From positions 1 to 31,879 of IMG/VR virus record IMGVR_UViG_3300012964_000040: DNA of 31,879 bases. One strand, written 5' to 3'. A program made the translations under genes and the position numbers. Source of the stretch: a virus (taxonomy: Duplodnaviria > Caudoviricetes). Position 1 is the stretch's first letter. Each line of letters begins with the position of its first letter. Below, one piece after another: positions 118-31,879 of the stretch. The notes under the pieces were generated by a model, which saw only the letters and a list, made by a program, of their open reading frames with translations, searched no databases and was not told the DNA's origin.

Positions 118-133
118 ATAATGAAGCAACGAT

Positions 134-220
134 GCCTAACGTGGAGGTCAGCAGCCGCGCTGACCACTTAACAACAGAGAACCCTGCCGTTGCGCGGTCT
201 GCTGCACCGTAGGGTTAGGG
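134..220 (-). other. attC site (87 bp)
   Basis: Minus strand reads CCCTAAC-CCTAC-GGTGCAGCAGACCGCGC...GCGCGGCTGCTGACC-TCCAC-GTTAGGC: R'', 5-nt spacer, L'' with an extra G, a second extrahelical A, L', R'. Confidence 0.9.
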
Positions 221-230
221 GATTTTAACT

Positions 231-566
231 ATGGAACAAAGCAAATTGATGGAATTCGTAAACGCAAGCGATAGAGAGCTGCGCGAATTTCTTGAGAAAA
301 ACCCAAAAGCCGCCAAGTTCCAGCGCCTTAATTTTAACGACAGCACGACACAGGAACGCATGATGCGGGTTGGAATTGAGGCCAGACATTGCGAAGCTAA
401 ATCAGAGGATGATATTTTTATGTTGGCCGTTGCAACGCTGCAAAACGACCATGTGAAAAACGAAAGAAAGCGCTTAACGGGTCTTACCCCTAACGTCAAG
501 CATGAGGGGGCGCCGGCATTATCGGCGCTCCCGCTCGATGCGCCTGTTGGGCGCGATGAGGGGTAA
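231..566 (+). CDS. Hypothetical protein (cassette cargo; reads through attC 488-552)
   Basis: 111-aa ORF starting 10 nt after the attC, whose AGGGG end could serve as RBS. No recognisable family. Confidence 0.7.
   Translation: MEQSKLMEFVNASDRELREFLEKNPKAAKFQRLNFNDSTTQERMMRVGIEARHCEAKSEDDIFMLAVATLQNDHVKNERKRLTGLTPNVKHEGAPALSALPLDAPVGRDEG
488..552 (-). other. attC site (65 bp)
   Basis: Minus strand reads GCCCAAC-AGGCG-CATCGAGCGGGAGCGCCG...CGGCGCCCCCTCATG-CTTGAC-GTTAGGG, with extrahelical bases on the R''/L'' arm. Confidence 0.88.
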
Positions 567-569
567 GAC

Positions 570-815
570 ATGGCAACGATGCCACGCGGGATGGTCCTCG
601 CCGTACCGGCCACGCTGCACCTGGACTCCTGGGCTGGGCGGAGAACCTACCAAATCCGGGTGACTGGAGAGACGCGGGAGAACTACCGCTTTGAGGCGCT
701 GGAGGATATTCCGATGCCGCGAAGGCGCTGGCTGAAGGTTGGAGAACATGGGCGCGCGCCGAAGTCTGCCGTGACGCCCAACGCCAAGGTAAGCGGCGTG
801 CCGCCACAGGACTAA
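570..815 (+). CDS. Hypothetical protein (cassette cargo)
   Basis: 81-aa ORF with GAGGGG RBS. The stop lies inside the next, truncated attC. Confidence 0.7.
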   Translation: MATMPRGMVLAVPATLHLDSWAGRRTYQIRVTGETRENYRFEALEDIPMPRRRWLKVGEHGRAPKSAVTPNAKVSGVPPQD

Positions 816-881
816 AAGGGAGCGATGAAGATGGAGCAACTGCAAGCGTTTGACGGAGGCACATGCGGCACGTCCGACTCG
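776..881 (-). other. Truncated attC site (R' half and stem retained, R'' end lost)
   Basis: GCCCAAC-GCCAAG-GTAAGCGGCGTGCCGC pairs with GCGGCACGTCCG (865-876) with the usual bulged base, but no GTT box follows on the + strand. Confidence 0.65.
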
Positions 882-968
882 TGGTACGGAACAGCAAGCG
901 GTGCGAACCCAAGGCCCCCAACGGCTGAATTCAGGGGCGGGCGGCTTTTTGCCCGTCCACTGGAATGA
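825..968 (+). pseudogene. 47-codon ORF, probable remnant of an internally deleted cassette gene
   Basis: AAAGGGAG RBS and ATG lie inside the loop of the truncated attC. MKMEQLQAFDGGTCGTSDSW...RPLE* is mostly att-site sequence. Confidence 0.35.
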
Positions 969-978
969 TTTGTTAGAG
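916..978 (-). other. attC site (63 bp), near-identical to the attC at 3474-3536
   Basis: Minus strand reads CTCTAAC-AAATC-ATTCCAGTGGACGGGCAAAAAGCCGCCCGCCCCTGAAT-TCAGCC-GTTGGGG. Confidence 0.9.
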
Positions 979-1000
979 CGCTGTTACAACAGGAGAGAAC

Positions 1001-1276
1001 ATGAAATCACCAATGCGACAGGCTTTTGAGGCATGGCATGGGTTTGAAGTTTGCGACGAAATGGACATCCAAACGTCGGTGGCTTGGGATAGCTGGAAAA
1101 CCGCATGGCGTGCGGCATCACTGGTGGAGCGCGAGGCGTGCGCTAGGCTGTGCGACAGGGCTGCACGAGATGACGTTGTGGCAAATGGGAACCTTGGCTG
1201 GACAAGCTCAGTTACACCACCAGATAAGCTTGCAGCCGGCATACGGATGCGCTCTAACGCAGAAATCAGGGGCTGA
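1001..1276 (+). CDS. Phage-type hypothetical protein (cassette cargo)
   Basis: AGGAGAG RBS. Contains 'AWRAA..EREACARLCD', a motif I associate with small early proteins of proteobacterial phages. Confidence 0.75.
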   Translation: MKSPMRQAFEAWHGFEVCDEMDIQTSVAWDSWKTAWRAASLVEREACARLCDRAARDDVVANGNLGWTSSVTPPDKLAAGIRMRSNAEIRG

Positions 1277-1312
1277 GCGTTAGCGAAGTCCCGCTGGATT
1301 GACGGGTTATGC
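1252..1312 (-). other. attC site (61 bp)
   Basis: Minus strand reads GCATAAC-CCGTC-AATCCAGCGGGACTTCGCTAACGCTCAGCCCCTGATT-TCTGC-GTTAGAG. Confidence 0.9.
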
Positions 1313-1325
1313 CCCGCCTTTCGAT

Positions 1326-1377
1326 GAAAATATATTTTAATTTAGGGCTTGACAGTAATTAAATATAGGGCTAGACT
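1326..1377 (+). promoter_or_regulatory. Sigma70-type promoter carried inside a cassette
   Basis: TTGACA (1349-1354), 17-bp spacer, TAGACT (1372-1377), with an AT-rich UP-like tract upstream. Confidence 0.75.
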
Positions 1378-1425
1378 GTGTTCATGGTTAGCGATTGGCG
1401 CGAACCGATTACAGGAGATACGAAA

Positions 1426-1695
1426 ATGAGCAAATTACACAATATGGATTTGGCAGGGTTTATCGAATGCGCAGCTGCAGGCATTAACCCGGAGGATTGC
1501 AAAATCGAGGGTTTCGCGGAGGCCTGCTACAACGACAACTCTGTTTCAGAATTAATCGAGGCTCTGAAATCACTGTCGGCAGATAAAACAGATTGTGAAA
1601 ACTGGAAAATAACACCCTCACAATGGCGTGGCGAAATAAAAAGCGCTCTTGAATATGCGATGTTTCAATATGTATCAGATAACGACCTGAAATGA
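1426..1695 (+). CDS. Hypothetical protein (cassette cargo, gene 1 of 2)
   Basis: ATG 1426 preferred over 1378 because of an AGGAGA RBS and its position downstream of the promoter. 89 aa, acidic. Confidence 0.75.
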   Translation: MSKLHNMDLAGFIECAAAGINPEDCKIEGFAEACYNDNSVSELIEALKSLSADKTDCENWKITPSQWRGEIKSALEYAMFQYVSDNDLK

Positions 1696-1883
1696 ACCAG
1701 GGCGGAGCAAGAAAGGGGGCCGGGAGGCCTCCGATTGACCCGCGAATGGTCAAGGTTCCGGTGGGGTACAAACTGCCCCGCTGGCTCGTTGAATGGCTGC
1801 GCGAACAGGATACGCCAGCCGCTCAGTTGATTGAGGACGCATTAAAAAAGCGGCACAAACTGAAACCGCCCGAAGGGGCATAA
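1692..1883 (+). CDS. Small DNA-binding protein, AT-hook plus ribbon-helix-helix/CopG-like
   Basis: GGARKGAGRPP followed by a beta-strand 'KVPVGYKL' and two helices. ATGA overlap with the upstream gene; its TAA lies in the GCATAAC recombination box. Confidence 0.75.
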   Translation: MNQGGARKGAGRPPIDPRMVKVPVGYKLPRWLVEWLREQDTPAAQLIEDALKKRHKLKPPEGA

Positions 1884-1916
1884 CGCACGTTAGCCGACAA
1901 ATGTCGCGTAACTACG
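1878..1916 (-). repeat. attI-like cap site, copy 1 (36-bp exact repeat at 1881-1916)
   Basis: TAACGCACGTTAGCCGACAAATGTCGCGTAACTACG is identical to 4202-4237. Minus strand reads ...GGCTAAC-GTGC-GTTATGC. The repeat is certain; the attI role is inferred. Confidence 0.7.
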
Positions 1917-1924
1917 GAGTGAAA

Positions 1925-2155
1925 ATGGTGGCAAACAGAGCTACATGGGGGGTAAAAGAACTTGATACTGGGCTAATTGTCGCCAGGGGCAGCGTCCCGA
2001 CAGCAGATGAGGCAATACGCGAAGCTGCGCACTACGCGATACAATATGGCCAGGATGGACCTGTATGTTATTGGGTGAAGCAAGATGGAAAAATACTTGT
2101 ACAAGGTTCGCTGAACGGCGTGACAATTGTGGCGACACCAGACGATGCAAACTAA
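1925..2155 (+). CDS. Hypothetical protein
   Basis: ORF 1901-2155; ATG 1925 follows GGAG at 1916-1919. Confidence 0.65.
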   Translation: MVANRATWGVKELDTGLIVARGSVPTADEAIREAAHYAIQYGQDGPVCYWVKQDGKILVQGSLNGVTIVATPDDAN

Positions 2156-2306
2156 CCCACTTGCAACCGTCGAGCACATGCTAGAGATCGCCAGGCGCTT
2201 GGGCTATATCCGCGAGGTAGTGGAATCCTACCAGACATATCGGCGGATAGGCTATACTGTAGAGCAGGCGGCGCAGATGGCGTTAGCGGATTGGGAGGAC
2301 GAGTGA
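2145..2306 (+). CDS. Hypothetical protein, 53 aa (below the ORF-track cutoff)
   Basis: MQTNPLATVEHMLEIARRLGYIREVVESYQTYRRIGYTVEQAAQMALADWEDE*. Fills the gap and overlaps both neighbours (GTGA coupling at 2303). Confidence 0.65.
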   Translation: MQTNPLATVEHMLEIARRLGYIREVVESYQTYRRIGYTVEQAAQMALADWEDE

Positions 2307-2548
2307 CAGCTAAATTAGTAGTGCTCGACACCCCAAATTTACGCGATGTCCCCGCTGGGCTGCGTAGATTGGCTGACGATCTAGAACATGGCCGCGCAAT
2401 GGCGGTCGAGGCCATTATCATCACCCGCGATGCTGATGATCATATGCGATATTACAGTTATGGTAATATCGTCGATGTTGCCCACGGTATTGGTATGCTA
2501 CATATTGCTGCCGTGGCGTTAGCGTCGGGCAATCTGGAGGATGATTGA
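2303..2548 (+). CDS. Phage hypothetical protein
   Basis: GGAGG RBS and GTG start; 'NLRDVPAGLRRLADDLEHG' helix-rich small protein. Confidence 0.7.
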   Translation: MTAKLVVLDTPNLRDVPAGLRRLADDLEHGRAMAVEAIIITRDADDHMRYYSYGNIVDVAHGIGMLHIAAVALASGNLEDD

Positions 2549-3131
2549 GCCTACAATTATGACTAATGCGCGATATGCACTCGCAAAACTAGCAGGCCGT
2601 GTGCCTGAGCTGGGCGCGACGCGCGGTACTGATCGAGCGAGCATCACGCCCGAGGATGTTGCTGCGGCGTGCGCAGGACTTGCGCGGGGGCCGTATCTGA
2701 TTGCATTGGCTAAATACGCGCATGATTGGTCAGGCATCGCGGAGTTGGAGCGCATTATCTGGCTAGAGGTCGTAGATATAGCGATCCGTCCGCCTGACGG
2801 CAGGCCATGGCGAATACCCGTCGGGCAGGAGATATTGCGCAATCTAGGGCGGGCGGCGGCGCTGGAGGCTATTGAGGAGCCATTGTGTGATGAATGCTCG
2901 GGGCGGCGTGTGATATTCCTCCCCGGGGGGTTGGTCGAGGATTGCGAGGCGTGTGCAGGGACGGGACGAGGGCGTTATGGCGCGGTTACACTGGCGGCGT
3001 CGGTCGGCGTATCATTGCCAGACTGGGCGCACGTCTGGGGACCGAGATACGCAATTATAAGCAAAATCCCGTATAATTGGCTATATACGGCAGTATTGCA
3101 TATTAATCAGAGATTAAACGATGATGGTTGA
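2541..3131 (+). CDS. Q: Late-gene antitermination protein, lambda Q-like
   Basis: N-terminal 'SITPEDVAAACAG', Zn finger CDECSG...CEACAGTG, HTH-like 'LAASVGVSLPDWAHVWGPRY'. Lies upstream of a promoter-terminator pair and the late operon. Confidence 0.8.
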   Translation: MIEPTIMTNARYALAKLAGRVPELGATRGTDRASITPEDVAAACAGLARGPYLIALAKYAHDWSGIAELERIIWLEVVDIAIRPPDGRPWRIPVGQEILRNLGRAAALEAIEEPLCDECSGRRVIFLPGGLVEDCEACAGTGRGRYGAVTLAASVGVSLPDWAHVWGPRYAIISKIPYNWLYTAVLHINQRLNDDG

Positions 3132-3198
3132 CGAACGGTAGACGTTTTAGGTGAGTCGCAACGGCTATTACTCGGAGTCTGTAGACTTTGCACGAGTG

Positions 3199-3256
3199 GC
3201 CTAACGAACAAAGCTCAGGCGCGGCGTAGCCGTCGCGCTGGAGCACCGTGTTGGGC
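3199..3256 (-). other. attC site (58 bp)
   Basis: Minus strand reads GCCCAAC-ACGGT-GCTCCAGCGCGACGGCTACGCCGCGCCTGAGC-TTTGTTC-GTTAGGC. Confidence 0.9.
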
Positions 3257-3273
3257 ACAGGCCCGGATAGGAA

Positions 3274-3486
3274 ATGATGACTGAACTCTATATGTGCCGA
3301 ACGGATTATGACCATGAGCTTGGCGCTGCGATGGGTGGAAATGTTGTTTACCCAAGCGTGGAAGATTTGAAGTTGCACCGGGGTTGCATTACGGAATGCG
3401 GGATTGTGGCGGTGCGCGTTGAGTTTGTGCGCGTAGTTGAGGAAGGGTGCCTGCACGGTGACTGTGACGAGGTGCCCAACGCCTGA
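3274..3486 (+). CDS. Hypothetical protein (cassette cargo)
   Basis: 70-aa ORF with AGGA RBS. Its TGA stop lies inside attC 3474-3536. Confidence 0.7.
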   Translation: MMTELYMCRTDYDHELGAAMGGNVVYPSVEDLKLHRGCITECGIVAVRVEFVRVVEEGCLHGDCDEVPNA

Positions 3487-3536
3487 ATTCAGGGGCGGGC
3501 GGCTTTTTGCCCGTCCACTGGAATGATTTGTTGGGC
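3474..3536 (-). other. attC site (63 bp)
   Basis: Minus strand reads GCCCAAC-AAATC-ATTCCAGTGGACGGGCAAAAAGCCGCCCGCCCCTGAAT-TCAGGC-GTTGGGC. Confidence 0.92.
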
Positions 3537-3560
3537 ACGGAGCAACCAAAGGGGAACGAT

Positions 3561-3908
3561 ATGGATAAAGAAACGGTATTGTTTTGTGCGGACAAGGTGG
3601 CAGGTCTTGCAAAAGCCGCTGGCTATTTTGCGGCCAATGCGGTGGCACCAACAGTGAAATTAAACGCGCTTGTTCGCCAGGAGATTTTGCTAGAGGTTGA
3701 AATGGTCTTGCGCAAAAGCGCGAACGGGACAGGTTATTGTGGCACGTGCGGGCAGTGGACGAATGGGCCATTAACTTGCTGCGCGAATGACGGTGACTTG
3801 CCGGAAGTGTCTGAGGTGGAAGCGTTTGCGGTACGCGCAAGCAGAGTGCCCAACGCCATAGCTCAGGGGCGCGAGCATAGCGAGCGTCCCGCTGGAGCGG
3901 AGGGTTAG
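3561..3908 (+). CDS. Hypothetical protein with a CxxC...CC motif (cassette cargo)
   Basis: AAAGGGG RBS before ATG 3561. Reads through attC 3848-3910. Confidence 0.65.
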   Translation: MDKETVLFCADKVAGLAKAAGYFAANAVAPTVKLNALVRQEILLEVEMVLRKSANGTGYCGTCGQWTNGPLTCCANDGDLPEVSEVEAFAVRASRVPNAIAQGREHSERPAGAEG

Positions 3909-3910
3909 AT
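3848..3910 (-). other. attC site (63 bp)
   Basis: Minus strand reads ATCTAAC-CCTCC-GCTCCAGCGGGACGCTCGCTATGCTCGCGCCCCTGAGC-TATGGC-GTTGGGC. Confidence 0.9.
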
Positions 3911-4214
3911 GCTGCACATTTACATCGAGACGATGCAGCCAGCGACCGGCTGGACTGACACACACAGCGGCGATCCAATGCAGATGGGCTACGAGCCGGA
4001 GAAACTGATTTACACGGACTGCTGCGGCCAGCAACGGCCCGCGAAAGACTGCATGGTGCAGAGCTACTACGACGGCCTGAGCGTCTGGTGTGCGCCGGAG
4101 AAAGGCTGCAAAGACCCGCAAGTGATCGCGGAGAAGAAGGCGAAGGAGTTTGCGACACGCAGCGCAGGGCAGAAGGCGCGATGGGCGAAGGCGAAAGCAT
4201 CTAACGCACGTTAG
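3909..4214 (+). CDS. Cys-rich hypothetical protein (cassette cargo)
   Basis: 101 aa with five Cys and a basic C-terminal helix. The GGAGGG RBS and the start codon lie at the attC edge; the stop lies in the attI-like repeat. Confidence 0.75.
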   Translation: MLHIYIETMQPATGWTDTHSGDPMQMGYEPEKLIYTDCCGQQRPAKDCMVQSYYDGLSVWCAPEKGCKDPQVIAEKKAKEFATRSAGQKARWAKAKASNAR

Positions 4215-4237
4215 CCGACAAATGTCGCGTAACTACG
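4199..4237 (-). repeat. attI-like cap site, copy 2 (36-bp exact repeat at 4202-4237)
   Basis: Identical to 1881-1916. Minus strand reads ...GGCTAAC-GTGC-GTTAGAT. Confidence 0.7.
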
Positions 4238-4278
4238 TGGAGAAAGCCGACACACAACGCCTAGGCCTAAACTAGGAG

Positions 4279-4307
4279 TTGACACCTAAATAAAAATGTG
4301 CTTTACT
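4279..4307 (+). promoter_or_regulatory. Late promoter, pR'-like
   Basis: TTGACA (4279-4284), 17-bp spacer, TG-extended TTTACT (4302-4307). Downstream of Q and upstream of a terminator and the packaging genes. Confidence 0.65.
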
Positions 4308-4420: not shown

Positions 4421-4953
4421 ACCTCCCAATCACCTACGATCAGTTCATTGAGCGGTGCATCCCCGGCGATGTGGTATTTGTAGGCAAAGGATCATTTGTT
4501 AGCTGGGCCATACGCACGATTACGGGGAAGCCCTATTCGCATTGCGGATTCGTTACGCTCAATGAGGCAGGCCAATGGATGATGATTGAGGCCGATCCGC
4601 ATGAAGCGCGAGCGGTACAGCTATCGGACTACAAGGGTCGTAAGTTGGCCATCGTCCGTCACCCGGTCCCCTGGGACGATATCAAGACTAAAGTATGGGA
4701 GTCCATCGGGACTGACTATGCCTACTCTCATCTCCTGTGGATCGCTCTGCGCGAACGTCTAGGCGTCAGGATGAGTTACACCGCCGCCAAAGAATACTGC
4801 TGTAGCGAGCATGTAGCTCTGAATCTCATCAAGGGCGGACTCAAAACCGCGCCCGGTCATTTGATATGGCCCCTCGATTGGCGCTGTTCCCCCGGTCGAC
4901 TCGCTGAACAACTGGACGCAATGGGCTACCCAGTAATCGCGGAGACTGCGTAA
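4417..4953 (+). CDS. Permuted papain-like NlpC/P60 enzyme (YiiX/YebB-like)
   Basis: PGDVVF...YSHCG (His first), IEA, G..Y and YCCSEHV (Cys last): the circularly permuted catalytic order. Confidence 0.85.
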   Translation: MNLPITYDQFIERCIPGDVVFVGKGSFVSWAIRTITGKPYSHCGFVTLNEAGQWMMIEADPHEARAVQLSDYKGRKLAIVRHPVPWDDIKTKVWESIGTDYAYSHLLWIALRERLGVRMSYTAAKEYCCSEHVALNLIKGGLKTAPGHLIWPLDWRCSPGRLAEQLDAMGYPVIAETA

Positions 4954-5492
4954 TGGCGCGCAAACAAGTGTCTAGGCAGGTCGATGAAAACGGCCTCACG
5001 ATTAAACAAGAGGCATTTTGTCGCGCATTTGTCGAGACGGGTAACGCGAGCGAAGCCTATCGCCGTAGTTATGACGCTGAAAATATGAAGTTTTCCACTA
5101 TCAACAGCAAGGCTTGCTTATTGCTAGGGGGCGACAAGGTGAGAGCAAGAGTGGACCAATTGCGTGCTATATCGACAGCAAAGGCGGTCAAAAAGCTCGA
5201 GATCAGCAAAGAATGGGTACTGTCCGAGCTGGTAGATAATGTCCGCAAGGCGAAGGCCTCCGAACCTGTGCTGATCAATGGCGAGCCGTCGGGAGAATAT
5301 CAAATAAACCTGGCGGCGGCGAACAGAGCGCTTGAGCTGATCGGCAAAGAGCTGAAAATGTTCGTGGACCGTAAAGAGATCAAGACCGGCCCGTTGGACG
5401 ACCTGGACGACACAGACCTGCAGAAGGTAGACGATGCACTGGCCGAGATTGAGCGAGCTTTCACCGGCAGCGGTAAAGGCATTACGCACTGA
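4953..5492 (+). CDS. terS: Terminase small subunit
   Basis: LTIKQEAFCRAFVETGNASEAYRRSY HTH and 'ANRALELIGK' motifs; directly upstream of TerL. Confidence 0.93.
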   Translation: MARKQVSRQVDENGLTIKQEAFCRAFVETGNASEAYRRSYDAENMKFSTINSKACLLLGGDKVRARVDQLRAISTAKAVKKLEISKEWVLSELVDNVRKAKASEPVLINGEPSGEYQINLAAANRALELIGKELKMFVDRKEIKTGPLDDLDDTDLQKVDDALAEIERAFTGSGKGITH

Positions 5493-6870
5493 GATAGCAC
5501 GTAAGCAATCCGAAAACAAGCTTGTCGGCTATCGGCCATACAAGAAGCAAAGTGAATTCCACCGAGCGGGCGCGAAATACCGGGAGCGATTATTCTCAGC
5601 CGGAAACCAGTTAGGCAAAACATGGGCTGGCGGATTTGAGACCGCCATGCACCTAACGGGGCGATACCCAGATTGGTGGGAAGGCAAAATATTCAATTCG
5701 CCAATCGTCGCATGGGCGGCCGGCGTGACCAGCGAAGCGACTCGCGACAACCCTCAGCGTATTCTGATGGGGCGAATAAACGCGATTGGTTGCGGCGCGA
5801 TACCCAAGAAGGCTATTAAGGAGTATTCCTCAAAGCGCGGCGTGGCTGATGCTATCGACACCGTGGTTGTGCTCCATGGCGGTGGAGCTGATGTGCAGGC
5901 CGGGGAAAGTTTGATCGCATTTAAGTCCTACGACCAGGGCCGGATGAAGTTCCAGGGCGAAACGTTGCATTTGGCCTGGCTCGACGAAGAGCCGCCGCTG
6001 GATATTTACAGCGAAACCCTCACCCGCACGAATACCACCAGCGGCATCGTGATGATCACGTTCACGCCGTTGTTGGGTATGTCGGATGTAGTGGTTAGGT
6101 TCCTAACTGAAAGGCCAGCTGGAACTCACGTCACAACGATGACAATAGACGACGCTGAACATTACACCGACGAACAGCGTAAGGCCATTATCGCCAGCTA
6201 TCCGGCGCACGAGCGAGAAGCGCGGGCAAACGGTACGCCGATGTTGGGTAGCGGAAGGATTTTCCCGATGGAAGAAAATTCGATCAAAATCGACCCGTTC
6301 AAGATACCGGCGCATTGGCCTCGAATCAATGGGATTGATTTTGGTTGGGACCATCCTGCGGCGGCAGCTTGTTGCGCCTGGGATCGTGATAGCGATTGTT
6401 GGTATGTGACGAATATTTACCGGCAGAACGAAGCCACTCCGGTGGTTCAGGCAGCCGCCATTCGTGCATGGGGGCCGTGGATTCCAGTAGCATGGCCCCA
6501 TGACGGCCTACAGCACGACAAGGGGAGCGGGGAGCAGTTGGCGCAGCAGTATAAGCGCGCTGGGCTGAAAATGCTCTCAGAGCGCGCTACGTTCGATGAC
6601 GGGACAAATGGCGTTGAGGCCGGGGTCATGGATATGCTGGAGCGCATGCAGACTGGGCGATTTAAGGTGTTCTCGACCTGCGCGGAATGGTTTGAAGAGT
6701 GCAGGATGTATCACCGCAAAGACGGCAAAATTGTGAAAGAGCGCGACGATTTATTGAGCGCAACACGATATGCGCTGATGATGAAGCGGAAGGCAATCGT
6801 AAAACCAATGCAAGAAACTGAAATGCGGCAGCGTGCGTTTCAACCATTTGACGCGACAATAGGGTATTAA
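5434..6870 (+). CDS. terL: Terminase large subunit, P22 gp2-like
   Basis: Walker A 'AGNQLGKT', Walker B 'AWLDEEP', motif III 'TFTP', nuclease 'GIDFGWDHP' and 'DDLLSATRY'. Confidence 0.96.
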   Translation: MHWPRLSELSPAAVKALRTEIARKQSENKLVGYRPYKKQSEFHRAGAKYRERLFSAGNQLGKTWAGGFETAMHLTGRYPDWWEGKIFNSPIVAWAAGVTSEATRDNPQRILMGRINAIGCGAIPKKAIKEYSSKRGVADAIDTVVVLHGGGADVQAGESLIAFKSYDQGRMKFQGETLHLAWLDEEPPLDIYSETLTRTNTTSGIVMITFTPLLGMSDVVVRFLTERPAGTHVTTMTIDDAEHYTDEQRKAIIASYPAHEREARANGTPMLGSGRIFPMEENSIKIDPFKIPAHWPRINGIDFGWDHPAAAACCAWDRDSDCWYVTNIYRQNEATPVVQAAAIRAWGPWIPVAWPHDGLQHDKGSGEQLAQQYKRAGLKMLSERATFDDGTNGVEAGVMDMLERMQTGRFKVFSTCAEWFEECRMYHRKDGKIVKERDDLLSATRYALMMKRKAIVKPMQETEMRQRAFQPFDATIGY

Positions 6871-25373: not shown

Positions 25374-26894
25374 ATGGCTGGATTTGGTTTAAGTAATGCT
25401 GTAGATGGTGCCATTAACGCGTATTACATGGCGAAGAATGATAAAGAACAAGAGGCTCGCAGACAATTAGAGCAACAAAACGCAGAACTGCAAAATCAGC
25501 AGTTAAAGAATCAAGTCGATTCTGAAACGCGATATAAGCAAGGTCTATCCTCTGCCTATGATCAATCAGTACAGACGAAGCCATATAAATACGACCAATT
25601 CGACCAAAACGACGTAATACCCGGAAGTGATGGATTGCAGTCTATTGCCGGTGTCGACAAACAGAAGTATCTCACTGGCGCCGAACAATCTGCAATGGCG
25701 GCTGGACTTCCAGAGAAAGCGGATATTTTGAACAAAATGCGTCAACAGGACGCGCAAGAAGGATATAAGCAAGCATGGCAATATGCCAAAGCTGGTATGT
25801 GGGACAAGGCGAATGAAGTATTCAATTCTATGGGGGACAGCAGGGCGAAGATCGATCCTCATCCTGGGTTCCCCGATGGTTCAGTAGCCTTGGTCACGAC
25901 CGATAAAGGCGACCAATCGGCGATTGATCTTAATAAGTTTGGTCAAGCGATGGGGTACACCTCTAACAAAATAACGACATTAGGCGAAGGACAGCAGGCA
26001 ATAGACAGTTCAGGAAAGGTTGTCGCGTCTAATCCAAAAGGCGATAAATATGTCTTTACCGACGCTGGGGTCTTGGATCAATCCAGCGGGAAAATCACCC
26101 CGCTTACGAAAGAACAACAAGCGGCGATGGCTAAAAAGGGGTCTGTTGGCGGGTCGACTTCTGGCAATGTCCAGTGGGCCGAATGGTTAACTAATAATGT
26201 TTTCGGCGGTGATCACGGCGCGGCGGCGAATTATATCAAAAGCTCAAGCGGCAATCCGATAGATAATAAGACTCGCTTGATGCAAGCCATATTGAAGCAT
26301 GATTCGGATAATTACATACAACGCCCATTGCCAGAAGTGTTAAAAGAGGTAGACGATACGTTTTCGGCGATGGCAGGAGGTAGGATCGTAGGTGGCGGGG
26401 TTCCGGCTCAAGGCGAGACGCCAACTACCGGGGTAGCAAATATTTCTCCTCCAAAAGTGGCCATTGATGCGTTGCGGTCAAATCCTTCTTTGGCTCCACA
26501 ATTCGCAGCTAAATACAAGGTCGATCCGCGCCAATTCATCCAGCAAGACAATGTTAGTCCGTCACAGCCTTCACCTTCTTCTGGCGGATTGACTAGCATG
26601 GTGGATCGTATTCAAAGAGAGAAGCAACTCAATGCACAATTGAGCACTCCGCCAAATCAAGAGCAAATTAGCATGGGTAAAAAGTTCGGACTGCCATCGA
26701 CAGCCACAAAAGAACAACGCGGCAAGGATTATAACTCAATGGCAATGGCCTATACTAATGTCATACGAGACGCAAATTCTGGCAAAGTCCCTCAATTGGA
26801 CGACTTGCAGAATGCGCTTAGATTTGCGCAGGGTAAAAACGATACGGCAACTGCCAAACAAATCACTGACATTATCAACAGATTCTACAAGTAA
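25374..26894 (+). CDS. Internal virion/DNA ejection protein (putative)
   Basis: ATG 25374 follows the upstream stop; Gln/Ala-rich; lies between the first ejection gene and the giant gene. Confidence 0.65.
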   Translation: MAGFGLSNAVDGAINAYYMAKNDKEQEARRQLEQQNAELQNQQLKNQVDSETRYKQGLSSAYDQSVQTKPYKYDQFDQNDVIPGSDGLQSIAGVDKQKYLTGAEQSAMAAGLPEKADILNKMRQQDAQEGYKQAWQYAKAGMWDKANEVFNSMGDSRAKIDPHPGFPDGSVALVTTDKGDQSAIDLNKFGQAMGYTSNKITTLGEGQQAIDSSGKVVASNPKGDKYVFTDAGVLDQSSGKITPLTKEQQAAMAKKGSVGGSTSGNVQWAEWLTNNVFGGDHGAAANYIKSSSGNPIDNKTRLMQAILKHDSDNYIQRPLPEVLKEVDDTFSAMAGGRIVGGGVPAQGETPTTGVANISPPKVAIDALRSNPSLAPQFAAKYKVDPRQFIQQDNVSPSQPSPSSGGLTSMVDRIQREKQLNAQLSTPPNQEQISMGKKFGLPSTATKEQRGKDYNSMAMAYTNVIRDANSGKVPQLDDLQNALRFAQGKNDTATAKQITDIINRFYK

Positions 26895-26903
26895 GGGGTT
26901 AAT

Positions 26904-29900
26904 GTGGCCAATTTCTTCGATCAATTCGACGAACCGCCTGCTAAATCCAATTCTGTCAAAGACCGATTCGAGAATGGGACTCCGCAGCGAGATTACCCAT
27001 TAACTGGAACAGGCGATCCTGCGCTGGAATCCTACCTAAATCAAAGCTCCAAAGCACAGTCAGGGAATTACTTTGATCAATTTGATGCGCCTGAATCGTC
27101 GAAACCTAAGTCCAGCAAGGAACCTGGCATATTTTCAGATGTTGGCAATGAATTGCTGGCGGGAACCGGAAATATATATTCAGGCGGATTACATGCGGCG
27201 GGAATGGCATTTGATGCTCTTGGCTGGGATGCGGCAAAGGATCAGGCGAGAAAATGGGAACAAGAAACGAATGAATCAGTAAATAAGTTTTTGGGGAATT
27301 TAAGCTCCAAGCAAAAAGAGGCTAATGCCAAAAAGTTTGTTGAGCAAACCGGCCCCGACTGGACAGACATTGCCCCCGGCCCAGCATGGAAAGACCCCAG
27401 GGCGATTATCGGTAACGCCGTTCAATCCGCCCCATCTACAGCGGCCAGCATGGGCATTGGTTTTGGCCTATCAAAAGCCATCGCTCCATTGGTAAGCAAA
27501 GCACTTCCCGCATTGAGCGCAGCAGCCACCGAGTCGGTTACTGGCGCGATTGCTTATGGCCTTGGCGAGGGTGCAACGTCTGCGGCAAGCGATTCTGAGC
27601 AAGTGGCCAATCAAATCAGATCAATGCCAGAGGGGGTACTTCAGACCTCTCCGACCTATCAATACTACTTGCAAGATCATAGTCCGCAAGACGCCCGCGA
27701 AAAGGTAGCGATGGATGCCGCCAAGCGGACTTTTTGGACTACCGGGGCTGTAACAACCCTACTTGGTGCCCCAATGGGTGCCGTGTTTGGACGGATGTTT
27801 GGCAAGTCTGGTCCTGTCGCCTCTAGCAGATTAAAATCGTTATTGATGGGCGGTCTTGGCGAGGCCGGGCAGGAATTTGCCCAAAGTGGCGCGGAACAGG
27901 CATTGCAGAACGAAGCCACTCGTAAATACGCCAATCCGGCCCAAGATATCAAGGAAGGCGTGATCAATCAAGCCGTCGCTGGGGGTATGTCGGCATTCCC
28001 AATGGGCGCAGGTGCTGGCGGGCTAAGTTATCAATCCCCCACTCAAGCGAATATCGAGCAACCGTCAGAACCATCGAAAGCCCTGCCGAATCTCGGACCT
28101 AATCCGATGGTTGTGTTTCCAGACGGCACTACGGCTAGAAAGGGCGAAGTCGATGACGCCATTGCAAAATTGGAAGCGAGCGGAAAACAAGAAGAAGCGG
28201 CTCAATTGCGCGCCAAACTCTTTGGTTATGCACAACAGCCCGCTGATCAAGAACAACAAGCGGAACCGGCCGCCCAACCTAATTTCTTTGATGCCTTCGA
28301 CAATCCGCCTCCTATCGGCAAGAATGCTCCCCAAACGCAAGAGGTCTTGATCCAAGGCATTCACAAACAAGCCGTAGGCCAAGATTACACTCAAGCATTA
28401 AATGAGCGCCAGGCGCAACAGGAAGCCGAACAGGCGCAAAAGATGAATCAAGGGTATGACCAAGCGGAGGCTGAACAACGCAATACCCAAAGCCGCTTGG
28501 CTGATCTTATTGCCAAAAACGATACTGAACAGGCAAGTGAGCCTAATGCCCTTCAATTGGCAATGAACAAAGCCAAGGTTCAATCTCAAGCCAATATTCA
28601 ACCGGATGATATCATTCGGCCTAACGGTCAGCCATTTCCGAGTCGTCCGGCAGTCGACTTCCATATCAAGGCCAAGAAGCTGGGAGACTATGCTCCCGTT
28701 CAACTGGCCAAGGGTCAATGGGTGGCGAGAAAGGTACAAGCGCCGCAGGAAGAAGTGTCCGCTTCTCCACTTCCCCCTACTTCAAATACCCGCCTTTCCC
28801 TACTTCGAATACCTACTCCTAAACCAGGGATTCAGTCGTCCAATATTGAGGCACAACCTACAATATCGGAACCAGAATCGACGCAGACCATCATTCAAAA
28901 GGCTGCGACAAATTACCCTACTTTCGATAAATACCAGTCATATTTGCGAGGTCGATTGGGGAAGGATGGGATAGCCAAAAACCAGGACATTATCAACCAA
29001 GCGTGGGATCAACGAGCAACGCCAGCTAATCAGCCCAGCGCCGAAGCGGCAACGGTTTCGTCTACCCAGGAGATGCCAGCCACCGCCGATCAAGGGGCAA
29101 GCAATGCTGGTGAGAAGCATGTTGCCGACGTTGGCAATATGATCGGGAAGCAGAAACAAGCAAACGAAACAGCCACAATCTTACCTAAGATTACTGCGGA
29201 GAAAGAGATTCTTGAAACCAGAACACCAATGGAAGTAGCGCAACCAACGGCAGTGCAAAGAACTTCGTTTGAGACGATCACGCTTAACGGTCCCAAAAAA
29301 CTTAAAGGTAAATTGTACGAAATGCCTGGGTATAAAGGCCCGCAATTAGCTGTTGTAGAATACAAGTCGCCGAGAGGCCAAGGGTACCGCGTATATCTTC
29401 CGAAGAGCGGGGTAATGCTTACCGATAACAATGGAGTTGGCAAATTAAATGATACGTTGAAAATCGCTGTTCAACGCGTTTCATATGCTAAATCTAAAGC
29501 GCAAGATAACAAACCAGCCGCATCACAGAATGCGGGCGGCGCAATCAATGAATCTGCTAAGATTGGCCCCGTGAAAGACAACCATGGGTCGGGCGACAAC
29601 CTCACTGATTCAAAACCCCTTCAGCCCGATAGTGAGGAATTTAAGCAGTGGTTCTCGGGAAGCAAAGTTGTTGATGCTAACGGAAAGCCATTGATTGTAT
29701 TCCATGGAACGAATATACAGTTTGACAAATTCGCAACAAATCCAGAAAGGCGAGTGTGGAATGACGATGCATCTCCAGAAGGACTATTCTTTACAGACAA
29801 TAAAGATGAGGCCGGATTTTACGCCAGTACTGCTGAGAGAAAGAATGGCGGAAATGCTCATATTGTAGAGTCATACCTATCAATACGTCATCCACATTTT

Positions 29901-31879
29901 GTAGATAACGACGACATATCAAGCTATATCAGAGATTGGCTCTATAAGCTTCAACAGAATGACCCGGAACAATATGACTTCATGGCCAGTACAAAAGCAT
30001 ACGAACTGCCTGAGTATCAAACCGGGTTAGCGCTTGCGATCAAAGACGCCAAGAACTCAGGTAAAGATGGGGTAATTTATACTAGCGAACTAGAAGACGG
30101 GACAAAGCAGAGGTTTTTTGTTGTATTCGATCCGGCACAGGTGCAAATCGCAAACCCTAACCAACCCCAGCGCACCCAAGGCGCTGCCGCCCAAGACCCC
30201 CCGCAGTCCGCGCCGAAGAAAACATATCAGCAATTGCTGGATGAAGCGTTGGCTGGCACGAAACCGATTTCCGAATCCGACAAGTTGCGCAGGCAGGCAG
30301 ACGCACTGACCAAAGAAGCCATGAAGATGATTGGCGGAGTCGAGCCGGGGCAACCGATCCGCTCGACCGCTGACCGCAACAAGCGCGACAAGGCGATGGA
30401 GAAAATGGCAAAGTCTGCCGATCTGCTGCGCCAGGCTGATGAACTCGACGCTGCCGCCCAAGAGCCAACGCCAGCGGCGGAGCGCGCTCACCAATATCCG
30501 CTACCCGGCACAACGTCAGAAAGCCACGAAAGATGGCGCCTTGTTGAACAGGGCCGCGCCGAGCCGGACGCTGACCAGCGCAAGCTCATGGACGCAGTGG
30601 ACGCTGCGCGCAAGTCTGGCATCAGCTCATACAATGAGGCCGTGGATCATGTTGTTGAGAACCTGAAAGGCTACCTGCCAGAAATTGCCCACACTGGCGA
30701 TGGCAGCCCAATCAAGTCGGAAGTGATTGGCGCATGGAAAGCGCTGGACACACAGGGCAACAAGAAGGCCAACGACGAGGCCAGAACCCGGCTTAACCTC
30801 AGCGTCGGCCAGAAGATCGGCAACATCACGCCAAATAGCGGAAAGATGCTGCGCGCCGTTTATGTTGAGGAAGTCGGCAGCACGCACTACACGCTGGTGG
30901 GAACGGCAGGCAATAAACAGGCCAGAATCTCACTTGACCCGACGGGCCTTGAGCGGGCTATTCAACGTGCGCAACCAGATAAGGTGGAAGCCGCCCAACA
31001 GTCCACCCAATCCCCGGAACCTGAACAGCCGGCAGAAGCGAACAAGCAGCCATGGCAGATGACGCGAAAAGAATGGGACGCTGCGCGTGAGAAGGTTCGT
31101 CCAGAAGTCGTGCAAAGCGATGTCACCAAAGCCTCTTCCTCGCGGGCCGTAGCTAATATCAAAGCCTTGGAACATTTGTTGTATGGCGTGACAGATACGG
31201 CAAGCGAGAAATTGCGGGCCGCCGCTAAGGGCGATATTTCGCTCACTCCTGACGAAGTCGAAGCCCTTACAGATCGCCTTGAGCGCAAAGTTTCGCATCG
31301 TGACGTGGTTGAGAAGGCATTGGCCGAAGGCAAACCCGTTCCTAAGAATGTATTAGCCGATTATCCAGACCTGCATCAAAATGCGTCTTCTACGCAACAA
31401 ACTGGAAAGATCGAGGACTTCGGCCAGAAAATCGGAGGGGCCAGAAAAGATATCTGGCAGTCCTACAAAGATACTCTGGACGAAGCCAAGGACATAGACG
31501 TTGCAGCCGAACCGCTCTCGAAATCCTGGCCTGCACCAAATTATGATTCTCTACTGGAGGCAGGCGCTGATCCGTGGGCGGTCGCTTTTATGCATGCAGC
31601 CCGCGATGAAATCCCGGCCAAGCCTTCAAAGTCATGGCGCCTGAAAGGTTGGGTGGATCAGGTCAAACTCTTGCGCGATTTTGCAATTGGGCTTGCCGAT
31701 GGCGCAGTATCTGTTGAGCACGCCCGAGAAGAAATCACGAAGAGGGATTCTCTGCGCGACATAGCCGGTCGGATCGAACTCTACATGGAGGTCGGGCACA
31801 GCCAGTCCTTGCGCGGCGTGAGAATTTCCTACGGTAATTATAGCCTTCACAACGGCATTGAATATGACCCGCCAAAGAC
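26904..31879 (+). CDS. Giant polyvalent (DarB/LPD-type) injected protein, partial, >1658 aa, with ART-PolyVal-like and LPD5-like domains
   Basis: AAGGGG RBS and GTG start, MANFFDQFDE.... The same frame gives 'FKQWFSGSKVVDANGKPLIVFHGT...GLFFTD...GKDGVI...VVFDPAQV' (~29631-30155) and 'KIEDFGQKIGGARKD...PLSKSWPAPNY' (from 31407). Frame spot-checked at several points, not codon by codon. Confidence 0.85.
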   Translation, partial: MANFFDQFDEPPAKSNSVKDRFENGTPQRDYPLTGTGDPALESYLNQSSKAQSGNYFDQFDAPESSKPKSSKEPGIFSDVGNELLAGTGNIYSGGLHAAGMAFDALGWDAAKDQARKWEQETNESVNKFLGNLSSKQKEANAKKFVEQTGPDWTDIAPGPAWKDPRAIIGNAVQSAPSTAASMGIGFGLSKAIAPLVSKALPALSAAATESVTGAIAYGLGEGATSAASDSEQVANQIRSMPEGVLQTSPTYQYYLQDHSPQDAREKVAMDAAKRTFWTTGAVTTLLGAPMGAVFGRMFGKSGPVASSRLKSLLMGGLGEAGQEFAQSGAEQALQNEATRKYANPAQDIKEGVINQAVAGGMSAFPMGAGAGGLSYQSPTQANIEQPSEPSKALPNLGPNPMVVFPDGTTARKGEVDDAIAKLEASGKQEEAAQLRAKLFGYAQQPADQEQQAEPAAQPNFFDAFDNPPPIGKNAPQTQEVLIQGIHKQAVGQDYTQALNERQAQQEAEQAQKMNQGYDQAEAEQRNTQSRLADLIAKNDTEQASEPNALQLAMNKAKVQSQANIQPDDIIRPNGQPFPSRPAVDFHIKAKKLGDYAPVQLAKGQWVARKVQAPQEEVSASPLPPTSNTRLSLLRIPTPKPGIQSSNIEAQPTISEPESTQTIIQKAATNYPTFDKYQSYLRGRLGKDGIAKNQDIINQAWDQRATPANQPSAEAATVSSTQEMPATADQGASNAGEKHVADVGNMIGKQKQANETATILPKITAEKEILETRTPMEVAQPTAVQRTSFETITLNGPKKLKGKLYEMPGYKGPQLAVVEYKSPRGQGYRVYLPKSGVMLTDNNGVGKLNDTLKIAVQRVSYAKSKAQDNKPAASQNAGGAINESAKIGPVKDNHGSGDNLTDSKPLQPDSEEFKQWFSGSKVVDANGKPLIVFHGTNIQFDKFATNPERRVWNDDASPEGLFFTDNKDEAGFYASTAERKNGGNAHIVESYLSIRHPHFVDNDDISSYIRDWLYKLQQNDPEQYDFMASTKAYELPEYQTGLALAIKDAKNSGKDGVIYTSELEDGTKQRFFVVFDPAQVQIANPNQPQRTQGAAAQDPPQSAPKKTYQQLLDEALAGTKPISESDKLRRQADALTKEAMKMIGGVEPGQPIRSTADRNKRDKAMEKMAKSADLLRQADELDAAAQEPTPAAERAHQYPLPGTTSESHERWRLVEQGRAEPDADQRKLMDAVDAARKSGISSYNEAVDHVVENLKGYLPEIAHTGDGSPIKSEVIGAWKALDTQGNKKANDEARTRLNLSVGQKIGNITPNSGKMLRAVYVEEVGSTHYTLVGTAGNKQARISLDPTGLERAIQRAQPDKVEAAQQSTQSPEPEQPAEANKQPWQMTRKEWDAAREKVRPEVVQSDVTKASSSRAVANIKALEHLLYGVTDTASEKLRAAAKGDISLTPDEVEALTDRLERKVSHRDVVEKALAEGKPVPKNVLADYPDLHQNASSTQQTGKIEDFGQKIGGARKDIWQSYKDTLDEAKDIDVAAEPLSKSWPAPNYDSLLEAGADPWAVAFMHAARDEIPAKPSKSWRLKGWVDQVKLLRDFAIGLADGAVSVEHAREEITKRDSLRDIAGRIELYMEVGHSQSLRGVRISYGNYSLHNGIEYDPPK

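Follow-up and report, generated by a model that had tools for sequence, protein, structure and literature searches.

The stretch of DNA analyzed here, 31,879 nucleotides from a tailed phage (IMG/VR record IMGVR_UViG_3300012964_000040, positions 1 to 31,879; hereafter the window), carries two arrays of integron-type gene cassettes, each capped by an identical short site. These two sites, A and B, are probably phage-borne copies of a chromosomal-type attI and would likely serve as docking sites at which the integron integrase (IntI) of the host inserts cassettes at a G|TT crossover. Judged from its sequence, the site would work like an attI and is probably a member of an attI subfamily, yet it is not part of a complete integron.

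The repeated site and its cassette junctions

Positions 1881-1916 and 4202-4237 are identical over 36 bases with zero extension on either side, as an initial sequence-only reading had described, and the only other exact repeat in the window at word lengths of 25 and 30 is a pair within attC sites (925/3483). Because the first TAA derives from the cassette, only 33 of the 36 bases truly belong to the site (Table 1). The inverted repeat noted in that reading is present in both copies (1889-1912 and 4210-4233; a 9/11 palindrome), as is the L-box spacing of 4 nt, compared to 5 nt in the attI1 of a plasmid record. The inverted repeat is best interpreted as an L box paired with an upstream box resembling the attI direct repeat (DR), and TA at positions -9/-8 places the L box in inverted orientation at the distance seen in host sites.

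The seven attC sites identified with an attC profile are confined to the minus strand of the first 4 kb, with none in the rest of the 31.9 kb. The profile gave zero matches in 533 kb of shuffled loci, and it was partly seeded with the window's own sites, such that their scores are not independent. These attC sites have the canonical IntI geometry (R''-L''-L'-R'), and with four and three intact sites in the two arrays and no intI, the arrays classify as clusters of attC sites lacking an integron-integrase (CALIN). Their polarity is fixed independently, as in stretches common to other loci (1255-1432 in L099 and 771-879 in L268) the attC body stays linked to the 5' end of the gene on its right. 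Additionally, G exceeds C on the plus strand in six of the seven sites, which fits the plus strand being the recombinogenic bottom strand, for which an excess of G over C is given in the available text of PMC5027507.

Read on the minus strand, cassettes begin with G|TTRRRY and end in a matching R'', with a 6/6 match for six of the seven segments; the seventh, spanning a broken unit (782-921), matches at 5/6. The junctions that abut the 36-mers (G|TTATGC and G|TTAGAT) match the R'' of their own cassettes at 6/6, bearing out the earlier placement of the repeat at the attI end of both arrays, with identity starting in the R box of two different cassettes. Homologues of cassette A1 in L086 and L099 stop at the identical TAAC and continue into an attC, where the window phage continues into the 36-mer, and in one contig of run X3 (probably the source sample) A1 is followed by another site, which is host-like. 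This exact base has thus been a point of cassette exchange, and the G|TT crossover at the site is real. The distal ends had been described as sharing GTTAGGC. The motif is present at both, but only 133 bp separate the left one from the contig end, and another cassette may start there. GTTAGGC is not enriched at array ends (6/55) relative to array interiors (22/197).

Relatives of the site in phages and host genomes

Comparison with host attI sites was based on intI loci from 301 Burkholderiales genomes, 121 Methylococcales genomes (order names inferred), and five further records. A downstream attC confirmed the junction in 34 of the 64 intI loci examined and the other 30 were left out, and 31 phage junctions were counted after the removal of those scoring as attC arms, incomplete, or derived from genome contigs. 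An A at -8 is present in 32 of the 34 host sites beside intI, and TA at -9/-8 occurs in 20/34 host sites and 18/31 phage junctions, relative to 5% of the 1048 GTT sites in the window. The attI1 register is seen in two of the 34 host sites, which is the background level. The earlier statement that the site is not a standard attI therefore holds only in relation to attI1, as the short spacing is usual among the chromosomal attI of the Burkholderiales and Methylococcales (20/34). Among junctions of phage-type arrays, 17 of 40 exceed the 99th percentile on a profile of the host attI; the window site is regarded as an atypical member of the attI family because its score on this profile falls under the 95th percentile of the background. 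The best match to the profile in the window (4272-4288, minus strand) shares its score of 6.8 with a site at 26360. It is situated 67 bp past site B, where a plus strand TTGACA hexamer overlaps it, and may be a chance match, a promoter look-alike, or a third site.

A relaxed pattern, built from the window site alone, was searched in IMG/VR and bacterial genomes. The 42 distinct matches in IMG/VR include 12 that head a cassette with an R'' match of 5-6/6 (nine at 6/6), and none of the 42 has an attC in the opposite direction. When one spacer base was added to the pattern, 3/47 matches headed a cassette, and where 700 bp were available the short and lengthened patterns compare at 10/34 vs 3/45 (p = 0.012). 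Both registers exist, with the short one dominant. In two loci (L253 and L240) a common head is followed by different first cassettes.

The search proposed initially, for the 36-mer in phages and near host intI genes, returned no exact copy, but the relaxed pattern is found 249 bp from a full intI in the Methylococcales (L396). Another Methylococcales match lies beside a broken intI (L391), and three of the other five head cassettes at 6/6 (L392, L393, and L397). Eight matches were examined in the Burkholderiales, three of which head cassettes and lack an intI within 1.5 kb. G495 has two pattern matches, but the attI beside its own intI is of another kind. The window site is considered to belong to an attI subfamily, and while the initial description of a phage-borne cassette site at the attI end stands, interpretation as a copied host-type attI is preferred over a phage invention. 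Two bacterial genomes, G335 (L392 and L395-L397) and G245 (L225 and L231), have several orphan copies of the subfamily, most of which head cassettes. In L232 (G495:C1:2222364), genes for a tyrosine recombinase other than IntI and for a transposase-like protein come directly after the family site, in place of an ordinary cassette.

Duplicate heads recur in other phages. Fifteen array-bearing phage records were read whole or nearly so (six of them ≥90% complete), and in four of these near-identical heads occur at least two times: G539 (41 identical bases), G541, G535 (42 attC sites), and G528. A fifth, G529, carries two heads that differ from each other. The arrays face in opposite directions in G539, G541, and G528, and are in tandem around a probable Q-type gene in the window. 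The proposal of a duplicated site thus has counterparts elsewhere, and selection for two hotspots may have contributed. The second copy would be of recent origin and would give a second entry point, with one possible route offered by the segment between the arrays, which is shaped like a delta-attI cassette. The G535 record (L309 and L311) is a 58.5-kb provirus whose several arrays occupy both strands and which has five or more heads. A terminase-related phage (L004) has its own duplicated 22-mer (1271-1292 and 1645-1666) at cassette junctions, which misfits the host attI profile.

A match to TIGR02249 (E ≤ 0.001) was found in none of the 15 phage records and not in the window contig, and the same search was positive in all 14 control genomes. 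There is no intI beside sites A and B, the flanks of which are phage genes. A host IntI would be the simplest enzyme.

Alternative explanations of the site

Several observations weigh against host-type attI copies that are used by a host IntI. The exact site is absent from GTDB genomes, IMG/VR, GenBank phages, and metagenomes beyond its own contig, and the empty junction predicted by the sequence-only reading was not found in IMG/VR or metagenomes by exact and near-exact searches. Thirty of the 42 viral matches to the relaxed pattern head no detected cassette, and the genome counts are barely above the control (9 vs 5 in 401 genomes and 7 vs 5 in 251 genomes), with hits separated by context only. 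The window site scores -4.9 on the profile of 34 host attI, below the 95th percentile of the window (-2.9), and a strong inverted repeat is found in only three of the 34 host sites and five of the 31 phage junctions. IntIs are described as specific for their cognate attI in the accessible part of PMC2095811, and no cognate IntI was identified here. Finally, the completeness estimate for the IMG/VR record is 54%, which leaves room for a phage recombinase. Two near-exact matches in IMG/VR, inside a gene of related AT-rich contigs, were rejected as chance.

The incompleteness of the record, the poor fit to the general host profile, and the missing exact host copy could all be accommodated if the sites were true attI and the recombinase was encoded on the unsequenced part of the phage. 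This is improbable considering the lack of TIGR02249 matches across array-bearing phages, the attC geometry canonical for IntI, and the occurrence of the site family next to true intI. It is quite improbable that the site represents what is left of a collapsed attC, or else a secondary site of the attG type used opportunistically, and was passively copied with its flank. The site has a hairpin like the inner stem of an attC, its L box reads as an R''-like heptamer, a cassette in L004 starts with the same 11 bases, and one attC unit in the array is broken; genome-wide insertion by IntI at GWT sites is reported in the available text of 10.1101/2022.09.11.507474. Scored as an attC, however, the 36-mer lacks an upstream R'' box, has a right-arm score of -4.2, and folds weakly (about -4 kcal/mol), and conservation continues for ~30 bases past the GWT, both among unrelated phages and next to intI.

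An operator or promoter element that cassettes adjoin incidentally is a very unlikely explanation for the inverted repeat. The palindrome does precede an open reading frame (ORF) start at copy A and the late region at copy B, and the small phage protein of cassette A1 gives a weak CcdA-like lead, but the identity stops precisely at the crossover triplet, all cassettes headed by the family lie in a single orientation, and a sigma-70 scan gave zero matches overlapping either copy. The site may have a second, regulatory role. The duplicate being an assembly artefact at a short repeat is barely credible: the contig is metagenomic, related phages occur in the same sample, and no listed piece spans the whole stretch, but contigs from runs X1-X3 (probably the source sample, hence not independent of the record) cover both flanks of both copies, with separate X1 contigs of similar depth (12-15) on both distinct left and both distinct right flanks (each flank taken by itself), and other records have duplicate heads too. 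A deeper contig in runs X1 and X2 joins 93-123, 4222-4252, and 2145-2306 in a different order (123 to 4222 and 4252 to 2145). Its joints have sides of 30-31 bases with unread letters between and were not used as evidence; this contig may represent a related phage in the sample that is laid out differently, with a different or empty site.

Reversed cassettes and comparison with known systems

With sites A and B taken as attI copies used by a host IntI, the enzyme would insert circular cassettes at G|TT. The main ORFs of the window cassettes are all on the plus strand and the attC polarity is minus, such that the genes are not co-oriented with attC. New cassettes would therefore join the 3' end of a plus strand transcript and would be read from phage promoters, in which case no cassette promoter (Pc) would be needed and the newest cassette would be furthest downstream. 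The promoter-distal landing proposed initially follows from geometry only, with no early or late promoter mapped. In this orientation the coding strand would carry the recombinogenic attC strand and would be the lagging-strand template if replication forks run with transcription. According to the available text of PMC5371416, attC bottom strands on the lagging-strand template recombine more, and the orientation of the cassettes may favor recombination.

A survey of 63 loci, nearly all fetched with two attC patterns from the window, identified attC in 56. The duplicate loci L084, L085, L090, L102, and L129, and also L198 and L227, were left out of the analysis, and G031, G299, G348, and G504 underlie none of its claims. 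Relative to attC polarity, 115 of 199 phage-array cassettes were antisense, five were sense, and 79 were unclear, based on mechanical ORF calls that included the window and near-duplicates; the counts in a repeat pass were 85 antisense, 8 sense, 72 with both, and 12 with none. The first cassettes of host arrays were 15 sense, three antisense, and 16 unclear (n = 34). Antisense ORFs run past G|TT into the neighboring site in 80 of 157 instances and stop in the R box in a further 36. PHROGs matches were obtained for 38 of the 123 antisense ORFs scanned, 11 of which are DNA methyltransferases; the scan omitted 35 of the 157 ORFs, 28 of them mostly the shortest.

A broader proposal may well hold, though it stops short of being probable: many phages of IntI-bearing proteobacteria would maintain a parasitic, mirror-image integron, with a host-type attI (often in several copies), a hijacked host integrase, and a pool of reversed cassettes, shared among phages and rich in DNA-modification genes. 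As part of this proposal, cassettes may form from phage genes in place, since the genes often end at or beyond G|TT (116/157). Integrons are bacterial stores of resistance and anti-phage genes, and if phages have attI copies of their own and exploit the host integrase, that enzyme would diversify the attacker too. DNA methyltransferases have a known anti-restriction function. How cassettes are made is a long-open question, and reversed, tightly fitted genes would provide a concrete system for testing cassette genesis. Standard surveys score attC and intI and not attI, and as such these arrays would be filed as passive CALINs.

The arrays are part of a tailed-phage genome, with terminase, portal, capsid, and tail genes 3' of 4953 (Pfam/PHROG search). 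Among 80 terminase-related loci examined, an attC array is present in L004 only. The Q-like gene between the arrays has zero Pfam or PHROG matches, PF27659 and PF03589 occur on minorities of members (a lead only), and no usable relatives were obtained, such that the locus is not traceable through it. The cassette proteins of the window also have zero Pfam or PHROG matches. The second gene of cassette A1 recurs in L086, L099, L112, L125, and L138. Two attC sites in different arrays (916-978 and 3474-3536) share 95% identity over 63 bases despite differing cassettes. The L268 stretch that corresponds to 771-879 lies just upstream of and extends into a DNA methyltransferase cassette gene, and the broken unit at 782-921 is read as the remnant of such a cassette. 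Elsewhere, a large protein encoded at 26904-31877 is open-ended, contains an ART-PolyVal domain, and shows similarity to DarB, and an Rfam search of the window gave a single match, judged to be chance.

Table 1. Positions of the attI-type sites, cassettes, and adjoining phage features in the window.
Feature	Position	Strand	Remarks
attI-type site A	1884-1916	-	Crossover G|TT between 1884 and 1883; L box 1889-1895; upstream DR-like box 1906-1912
attI-type site B, identical to A	4205-4237	-	Crossover between 4205 and 4204; L box 4210-4216; DR-like box 4227-4233
Cassette A1	1258-1883	-	attC 1252-1312; plus strand ORFs 1378-1695 and 1692-1883; promoter-like site 1349-1377
Cassette A2	922-1257	-	attC 916-978; plus strand ORF 1001-1276
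Broken unit A3	782-921	-	771-879 97% identical to L268, then diverges; attC broken
Cassette A4	494-781	-	attC 488-552; plus strand ORF 570-815
Cassette A5	140-493	-	attC 134-220; plus strand ORF 231-566; array may continue beyond the contig
Cassette B1	3854-4204	-	attC 3848-3910; plus strand ORF 3909-4214, stop inside site B
Cassette B2	3480-3853	-	attC 3474-3536; plus strand ORF about 3561-3908, through the next attC
Cassette B3	3205-3479	-	attC 3199-3256; plus strand ORF 3274-3486; homologue in L265/L278
Non-cassette phage segment between arrays	1917-3204	+	Small ORFs and probable Q-type antiterminator 2541-3131
Terminase small and large subunits	4953-6870	+	Arrays sit directly upstream of the virion gene block

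It should be noted that phage CALINs without an integrase and with DNA methyltransferase cargo were previously published by Qi et al. 2023 (PMC9892861). The available text of that study also describes a Shewanella M16-3 prophage in which an attI starts both an integron and a CALIN, but this prophage is cryptic and encodes its own IntI. TJE1 and PH101 are given there as typical arrays, and integrase-free attI heads and systematically reversed genes are not described in the accessible portion. A search of the open literature (subscription journals were outside its reach) found no account of integrase-free phage attI heads with reversed cassettes.

Compared to attI1 of class 1 integrons, with box names following the accessible part of PMC12901181, the window site has the same G|TTRRRY crossover, a degenerate L box, an upstream direct-repeat box with a GTTACGC core, and GTCG before the L box. 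It differs in that the L box is one base closer, the upstream box is 28 bases from the crossover (32 in attI1), neither intI nor Pc is adjacent, and the cassette genes face the site. The segment 1884-3204 resembles the delta-attI cassettes of the same source, as it starts at G|TT and ends in an attI. Units of attI1-gene-attI1 are described there as excisable, but the window segment holds probable core phage genes, and as a result excision would likely be eliminated by selection. The attG sites, as presented in the available text of 10.1101/2022.09.11.507474, are likewise double-stranded, integrase-distant cassette targets, though their consensus is GWT only, unlike the ~30 conserved bases that the window site has in common with sites beside intI. 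The chromosomal attI of the Burkholderiales and Methylococcales have the same register as the window site and include a CGACA/TGTCG subfamily that occurs both beside intI and as orphans. The window site scores low on their pooled profile, and while host first cassettes are mostly sense where callable, those of the phage arrays are mostly antisense.

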